This document shows, in pieces, positions 44,967 through 44,982 of a stretch of DNA of 50,400 nt; position 1 is the stretch's first letter, and each line of letters starts with the position of its first letter. The translations under genes and the position numbers were made by a program. The notes beneath the pieces are model-generated. The model was not told where the DNA came from, did not search any database, and worked only from the letters and a program-made list of their open reading frames with translations. The stretch comes from Escherichia coli. Its GTDB lineage: Bacteria > Pseudomonadota > Gammaproteobacteria > Enterobacterales > Enterobacteriaceae. Location of the stretch: the NCBI RefSeq assembly GCF_003334335.1, contig NZ_QOWQ01000034.1; one strand, given 5' to 3'.

Positions 44967-44982
44967 CGGCACGCTTATTGCA
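44967..44982 (+). promoter_or_regulatory. Sigma54-type -24/-12 promoter element upstream of the modification-module genes
   Basis: CGGCAC-GCTTA-TTGCA (GG and GC at correct spacing), 35 nt upstream of ATG 45017 with GGAAG RBS. Confidence 0.5.

Follow-up and report, generated by a model that had tools for sequence, protein, structure and literature searches.

The DNA analysed here, called the window below, is a stretch of 50,400 nucleotides from E. coli contig NZ_QOWQ01000034.1. It belongs to the Flag-2 locus (lateral flagella) of E. coli, bounded by dinB/lafU and lfhA, and many E. coli chromosomes share the region around the feature of interest with 100% identity. Roughly one in five complete E. 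coli genomes carries the Flag-2 system, and the intergenic region between lfgN and lafV was found, as a single copy, in 1157 of 5426 complete genomes; in many E. coli strains the system may be expressed poorly or not at all. The minus strand carries the lfgB-L operon for rod, hook, and rings, whereas the plus strand carries lfgA, lfgM, and lfgN (43352–44889, from the lfgA start at 43352 to the lfgN stop at 44889), followed by lafV (45017–45946, ATG at 45017), which encodes a FliB-like putative flagellin lysine-N-methylase of 309 amino acids, and by the gene of a GT2/TagF-like transferase (GT) of 814 amino acids (46125–48569). A gene for a tagD-like glycerol-3-phosphate cytidylyltransferase of 131 amino acids (48687 to about 49082–49085, minus strand) converges on GT and abuts lfiJ. 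De Maayer et al. (2020; PMC6993521) designated lafV, GT2-1, and TagD as Flag-2 'variable region 1', classified LafV (FliB-like), GT2-1, and TagD as presumed flagellin-modification genes, and proposed that this region serves flagellin methylation and either glycosylation or glycerol-phosphate decoration; the word 'promoter' does not occur in their paper. The gene order lfgN-lafV-GT-tagD, including the palindrome and the sigma-54 module described below, is intact in the common laboratory strain E. coli ATCC 8739 (NZ_CP022959.1, 3691774–3697919). When window positions ~36254–42935 are compared with the near-identical NZ_CP081711.1, the coordinate offset shifts by 118 bp between flgK and lfgB, which points to a small indel, possibly a repeat element.

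LafV matches the NCBIfam profile NF038110 with an E-value of 3e-11, which is below the curated cut-off, over profile positions 105–363 of 373; the N-terminal region of FliB, corresponding to the initial ~100 positions of the profile, is missing, and the local Pfam library contains no matching family, while the homologues of LafV carry the NCBI name lysine-N-methylase. GT possesses a GT2 domain at residues 20–134 and a weak TagF-like CDP-glycerol glycerophosphotransferase region at residues 605–728, and the product of the tagD-like gene matches TIGR01518 with an E-value of 2e-33. Because of the TagF-like region of GT and the converging TagD-like gene, a decoration containing glycerol phosphate is plausible, as De Maayer et al. 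suggested, and flagellin would be the presumed substrate of LafV and GT. The two genes are adjacent in all 23 orthologous loci that were collected via an alignment of LafV homologues (contigs from one genome per species, covering Escherichia, Pseudocitrobacter, Citrobacter, Phytobacter, Leminorella, and other Enterobacteriaceae), with a gap of about 20–100 bp outside Escherichia, and GT is therefore probably co-transcribed with lafV.

In the window, lafV and GT are separated by a GC-rich palindromic dispersed repeat of 135 nt (45954–46090, plus strand), a perfect-stem palindrome with an RNA folding energy of −97 kcal/mol (z −8.8), which we take to belong possibly to a family of the 'box C' type. 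Of 5426 E. coli genomes, 4610 contain parts of this repeat (median 5 places), but only 732 a full-length copy; at the orthologous loci it is confined to the Escherichia clade. An Rfam search of 44400–46300 returned only sub-threshold look-alikes of eukaryotic miRNAs, all on the repeat, and no riboswitch or leader. Lacking a U-tract, the repeat does not qualify as a classical terminator; it may nonetheless have an attenuating or stabilising effect on the transcript and could lower the expression of GT from the lafV promoter. It also bears on the size of the transferase: the initial annotation had placed the element described below in front of the 309-aa gene and an 838-aa transferase, and the order of the genes stands, but the start codon of the 838-aa version (GTG, 46053) lies inside the repeat, so that the protein most likely comprises 814 amino acids from the ATG at 46125, which is also the RefSeq start and the version with which orthologues align from residues 1–6. 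Inverted pairs resembling REP/BIME elements (GCCGGATGCGGCG...CTTATCCGGCCTAC) are located at 48575–48660 between GT and tagD and at 30520–30640 between lafA and the palindrome upstream of lafB, where they are probably transcript-end or stabiliser elements. The tagD-like gene starts 2 nt after the lfiJ stop codon on the minus strand and is therefore probably co-transcribed with lfiE-J as the last gene of this export-apparatus operon. It is thus not driven by the lafV promoter but tied to the flagellar hierarchy via lfiE-J, and the three modification genes are split over two flagellar transcription units.

Between the stop codon of lfgN (44889) and the ATG of lafV (45017), a gap of 127 bp contains a predicted sigma-54 −24/−12 promoter element, CGGCACGCTTATTGCA (44967–44982, plus strand), which points at lafV and was assigned by consensus match, spacing, and conservation. 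Its description in the initial annotation as CGGCAC-N5-TTGCA with correct GG/GC spacing was confirmed: GG at 44968–9 and GC at 44980–1 form the canonical GG-N10-GC doublet arrangement of −24/−12 promoters, and 11 of the 12 specified positions of TGGCACG-N4-TTGCW are matched, the exception being position −26, which is C instead of T. The GC is located 35 nt before the lafV ATG, a distance that amounts to about 35–110 nt in the orthologues. With standard sigma-54 geometry, transcription is predicted to start at 44993, about 12 nt past the C of the GC, which would leave roughly 24 nt of 5′ UTR, and a ribosome-binding site GGAAG (45006–45010), 6 nt before the lafV ATG, is kept among the Escherichia alleles. 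When both strands of the window were scanned (100.8 kb of scanned strand), only three sites reached a score of at least 11, all others scoring 10 or less. The sister sites of the lafV element are TGGCACGGCGATTGCT before lfgB (43307–43322, minus strand, 12/12) and TGGCACGCCTTTTGCC before lafB (fliD) (30380–30395, minus strand, 11/12). Each of the three sites stands at the head of an operon, and a genome with 100% identity to the window over 43300–48700 has just these three of this class in its complete 45-kb Flag-2 locus. The bare motif GGCAC-N5-TTGC is found three times in the window compared to an expectation of 0.91, a count reached in 7 of 100 shuffled sequences and, taken alone, only marginal. 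An analytic estimate puts the probability of a correctly oriented 11/12 site arising by chance in the 127-bp gap at about 3.5e-4. What makes the lafV site credible, beyond this marginal count, is its position together with the palindrome shared by the three promoters and its conservation. Sites with 10/12 matches inside genes, e.g. at 26263–26248 (minus strand) and 29754–29769 (plus strand), have no palindrome and were discarded as members of the group; the former (TGGCATTCTGCTTGCT, 26248–26263) is located within lafS, the gene for sigma-28, upstream of motA_L, and could be either a chance match or a sigma-54 site within a gene.

Upstream of the lafV element, the palindrome GGAAACGGATTTTCCGCC (GGAAA-N5-TTTCC; 44912–44929, plus strand) represents a candidate enhancer (UAS) for the activator LafK, with its centre at about −74 relative to the predicted start. 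Counterparts are present 49 nt upstream of the GG of lfgB (GGAAATAAAACTTCCGCC, 43371–43388, minus strand) and 38 nt upstream of the GG of lafB (GGAAATGGCCTTTCCGCC, 30433–30450, minus strand), the distance at lafV also being 38 nt, and the difference of 11 nt between the two spacings corresponds to one helical turn. Exact copies of GGAAA-N6-TTCCGCC occur three times in the window, each of them upstream of a top-scoring sigma-54 site and on the same strand; with one mismatch allowed, there are six compared to 0.33 expected. The strict composite pattern (GGAAR-N6-TTCC followed after 36–58 nt by GGCAY-N5-TTGC) was likewise found three times in the window and not once in 300 windows simulated with a first-order Markov model. 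A further GGAAR-N6-TTCC inside flgG (39199–39213, minus strand) was treated as a chance occurrence (expected number 0.9), as it has no −24/−12 partner. The resemblance to the elements before lafB and lfgB that the initial annotation had noted is therefore borne out by the three best sites of the window and extends to the shared palindrome. Palindromes at such phased distances look as expected for a single enhancer-binding activator serving the three promoters, which supports this view, and a protein would presumably bind at 44912–44929.

Between the palindrome and the −24 region lies an IHF-like site, CAATCCCTTGTTT (44937–44949, plus strand), followed by an A/T-rich spacer. The IHF consensus is WATCAANNNNTTR, and by eye the site agrees with its reverse complement, YAANNNNTTGATW, at 8 of 9 specified positions. 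The corresponding site is perfect at E. coli lafB (30425–30413, minus strand), at Citrobacter lafV promoters, and at flgB_L of Vibrio campbellii, and its AA..TTG columns are conserved in an alignment of 11 taxa. IHF may bind here, and the spacer is likely to be bendable; by its sequence, the combination of dyad, bend site, and −24/−12 element has the design of a classical enhancer-dependent promoter. The palindrome was also considered as a Rho-independent terminator of lfgN. The hairpin (44910–44928) has a 7-bp stem and no T-run, was not called by a terminator scan, and folds no better than shuffled sequence (z −0.5); since it lacks a U-tract, folds weakly, and has the same dyad as occurs inside lfgA and upstream of lafB, this reading fails.

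Both parts of the module are conserved beyond E. coli. GGCAY-N5-TTGC precedes lafV in 21 of the 23 orthologous loci, in which LafV identity ranges from 40 to 92%, and the strict form of GGAAR-N6-TTCC is kept in 20 of them, at 41–42 or 50–51 nt; one further locus (L003) has GGGAAC in place of GGAAA at the palindrome position and retains the −24/−12 element. The 11-taxon alignment shows no variation in the GGCA and TTGC columns; of the 16 core positions, 13 are invariant compared to 6% of the other ungapped columns, and the palindrome is nearly invariant while the flanking intergenic bases diverge. Divergent E. coli alleles, 88–94% identical across the gap, retain every core base. The two exceptions are Enterobacter loci (L019 and L021) without the promoter, in which lafV follows lfgN after 26–29 nt so that lafV-GT must depend on transcription from lfgAMN. 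In Enterobacteriaceae bacterium RIT691 (L020, 5439–9481), a tagD-lafV-GT cassette is inserted between lafB and lafA, beside the flagellin gene, rather than at its usual place between lfgN and lfiJ, and the relocated lafV keeps the palindrome and the sigma-54 promoter. This arrangement suggests that the modification cassette moves as a unit, and it argues for a promoter that is part of the cassette instead of an incidental product of the 3′ end of lfgN.

The sister sites of lfgB and lafB are not new. In the original description of Flag-2, Ren et al. 2005 reportedly placed sigma-54 sites upstream of both genes. The two sites were also reported for strain PCN033, the one before lfgB as a consensus site, and the Flag-2 genes of this strain are described as intact (PMC4578781). 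The lafV site is not mentioned in the accessible Flag-2 literature, though an earlier mention, e.g. in Ren et al. 2005, is possible; searches of the literature yielded no transcript, start-site, or binding data for any E. coli Flag-2 promoter. The lafV site shares with its sisters the locus, the −24/−12 consensus, the upstream GGAAA-N6-TTCCGCC, and the A/T-rich or IHF-like spacer. It differs in that it begins with CGGCAC rather than with the TGGCAC of the lfgB/lafB class and in that it precedes accessory modification genes of variable region 1, whereas the other two promoters serve core structural genes. New here are the shared upstream palindrome and the assignment of the lafV promoter to the sigma-54/LafK-type lateral-flagellar class with the known lfgB and lafB sisters.

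For a comparison outside the Enterobacterales, promoters were taken from chromosome 2 of V. campbellii, since a search for LfgB homologues gave Enterobacterales alone among the matches listed. The promoters of fliD_L (GGAAAAGCCGCTTCC-54-GGCACACATCTTGC) and flgB_L (GGAAGCGAGGCTTCC-41-GGCATGCATCTTGT, with the perfect IHF-like site mentioned above) show, in an alignment of five promoters, the same arrangement as E. coli Flag-2, i.e. GGAAR-N6-TTCC at 54 or 41 nt from a homologous −24/−12 element, although the −12 element of flgB_L reads TTGT, unlike the TTGC of E. coli. The two V. campbellii stretches examined contain no lafV-GT operon, and a flagellar cluster on a V. breoganii plasmid, a more distant system, has no comparable module. 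In a V. parahaemolyticus ΔrpoN mutant, transcript levels of flgB2CD and lafBCD were reduced according to qRT-PCR, and the homologous sites are listed as RpoN sites; in electrophoretic mobility shift assays, RpoN shifted the flgB2 promoter but, alone, not the lafB promoter (PMC9817140). A paper on RpoN ChIP-seq in Yersinia pseudotuberculosis does not mention lateral flagella, Flag-2, or LafK.

The candidate activator of these promoters is LafK, whose gene belongs to the same Flag-2 locus, outside the window, and which is the only sigma-54 activator encoded there. Stewart and McCarter 2003 reportedly described the LafK dependence of Vibrio lateral genes. LafK is composed of a Sigma54_activat AAA+ domain, an AAA lid, and a C-terminal HTH_8 domain and has neither a receiver nor an N-terminal sensor domain. 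We therefore propose that it is active whenever it is made. It has been grouped with PspF and HrpRS as type Ic (PMC3162934), and a review states that it activates the lateral genes with the exception of the fliM_L operon (PMC3930126). The absence of the palindrome-promoter module before lfiM and lafK in E. coli Flag-2 fits this exception. The pspA-type promoters controlled by PspF likewise combine a sensorless activator with a proximal dyad UAS and a bend site before −24; PspF, however, is held by the anti-activator PspA, whereas LafK is presumably controlled via its own synthesis, and dyad sequence and regulon differ, so that the likeness can be read as an analogy of mechanism only.

We consider it probable that lafV-GT is driven by a sigma-54/LafK promoter at 44967–44982 with the upstream palindrome. 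Sigma-54 holoenzyme would bind as a closed complex to GG (44968–9) and GC (44980–1), and LafK would occupy the GGAAA-N5-TTTCC palindrome, the centre of which lies some 74 bp before the start. The A/T-rich, IHF-like spacer would bend the DNA, and ATP hydrolysis by LafK would then open the promoter, with transcription presumably beginning near 44993. The same palindrome-spacer-promoter module would drive lfgB-L (rod, hook, rings) and lafB-U (cap, chaperones, sigma-28, stators). As the module is common to lfgB-L, lafB-U, and lafV-GT, the modification enzymes would be made along with the 'class 2' genes, that is, before or at the time when sigma-28 turns on the flagellin gene lafA. The initial annotation had suggested co-regulation with hook-basal body and cap genes rather than with cell-envelope polysaccharide genes, and the shared cis-architecture, its conservation, and the presence of LafK in the locus all argue in favour of this suggestion.

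Transcription of lafV-GT might instead arise mainly by read-through from promoters of lfgA and lfgM, with the sigma-54 site being minor, auxiliary, or silent. No convincing terminator was detected in the lfgN-lafV gap by the terminator scan, the sole hairpin having no U-tract, and read-through from lfgAMN is therefore likely as an additional input; the promoterless Enterobacter loci show that it evidently can suffice, and sigma-54 is known to occupy many non-productive sites in E. coli (PMC4591121). Nevertheless, we regard read-through as the main source as unlikely, since the complete module is retained before lafV in 20 of 23 loci, and the −24/−12 element in 21, while neighbouring bases diverge, since it is kept in RIT691, where the upstream gene is not lfgN, and since it equals the lfgB and lafB promoters in design. 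Read-through and an own promoter are, moreover, not mutually exclusive. Other promoter types for lafV and GT received no support: a sigma-70 scan of 43200–49300 (TTGACA-N17-TATAAT) yielded no site in the lfgN-lafV or the lafV-GT gap and a sigma-28 scan (TAAA-N15-GCCGATAA) nothing with at least 10/12 matches in either of them. The lfgA-lfgM gap contains a perfect sigma-28 −35-like sequence, TAAAGTTT (44104–44111), with a poor −10 region (4/8 matches to GCCGATAA), which possibly serves lfgMN as a class 3 promoter, with transcripts that could run on into lafV-GT. lafV-GT may thus receive both class 2 input from its own promoter and class 3 input by read-through.

If the promoter is accepted as real and sigma-54-dependent, the identity of its activator can still be questioned: some other factor might bind the palindrome, or LafK might act from solution. 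E. coli possesses about a dozen other enhancer-binding proteins. No definition of a LafK binding site was found in the searchable literature, and control of the lateral genes in Aeromonas hydrophila does not rest with LafK alone (PMC4481668). Yet the palindrome occurs, in the window as in the whole Flag-2 locus, only at the three sigma-54 promoters, it is conserved together with lateral systems from Vibrio to Enterobacterales, and the HTH_8 domain of LafK, the sole sigma-54 activator encoded in the locus, is of the kind that reads such dyads, which makes a different activator, or LafK acting from solution, quite improbable. Finally, the view that the lafV −24/−12 element is a chance or decayed look-alike and the hairpin upstream of it the end of the lfgN transcript could appeal to the marginal count of the bare motif and to the position of the palindrome 22 nt past the lfgN stop codon, but it is strongly disfavoured and in our judgement very improbable, as the composite module was absent from all 300 simulated windows, its core is invariant across genera, the same palindrome is found before lafB and, for the lfgB promoter, inside the lfgA coding sequence, at no gene's end, and the lfgN-proximal hairpin has no U-tract and a weak fold.

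The proposed sigma-54/LafK promoter of lafV adds to the account of De Maayer et al. (PMC6993521) a regulatory link of the variable-region-1 genes to the flagellar hierarchy. If this holds, sigma-54 and LafK switch on the modification genes together with those of the hook-basal body and cap, rather than in concert with envelope polysaccharide genes. That flagellar modification genes ride on the flagellar hierarchy is an expected design and changes no general principle. The palindrome is a first candidate for a LafK binding site and might serve for predicting LafK regulons in Vibrio, Aeromonas, and Enterobacterales; reporters built on it could also help to find conditions that bring about expression of Flag-2, a largely silent system. 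We hold it to be somewhat better than an even chance that GGAAR-N6-TTCC is the LafK enhancer from Vibrio to Enterobacterales, that the direct LafK regulon of E. coli Flag-2 consists of exactly lfgB-L, lafB-U, and lafV-GT, and that lafV-GT is a mobile unit with its own LafK-responsive promoter that can be plugged into the hierarchy anywhere, as in RIT691. The palindrome of lfgB (43371–43388, minus strand) is located within the first codons of the divergent lfgA (start at 43352), and an activator bound there could therefore interfere with, or couple to, the transcription of lfgA.
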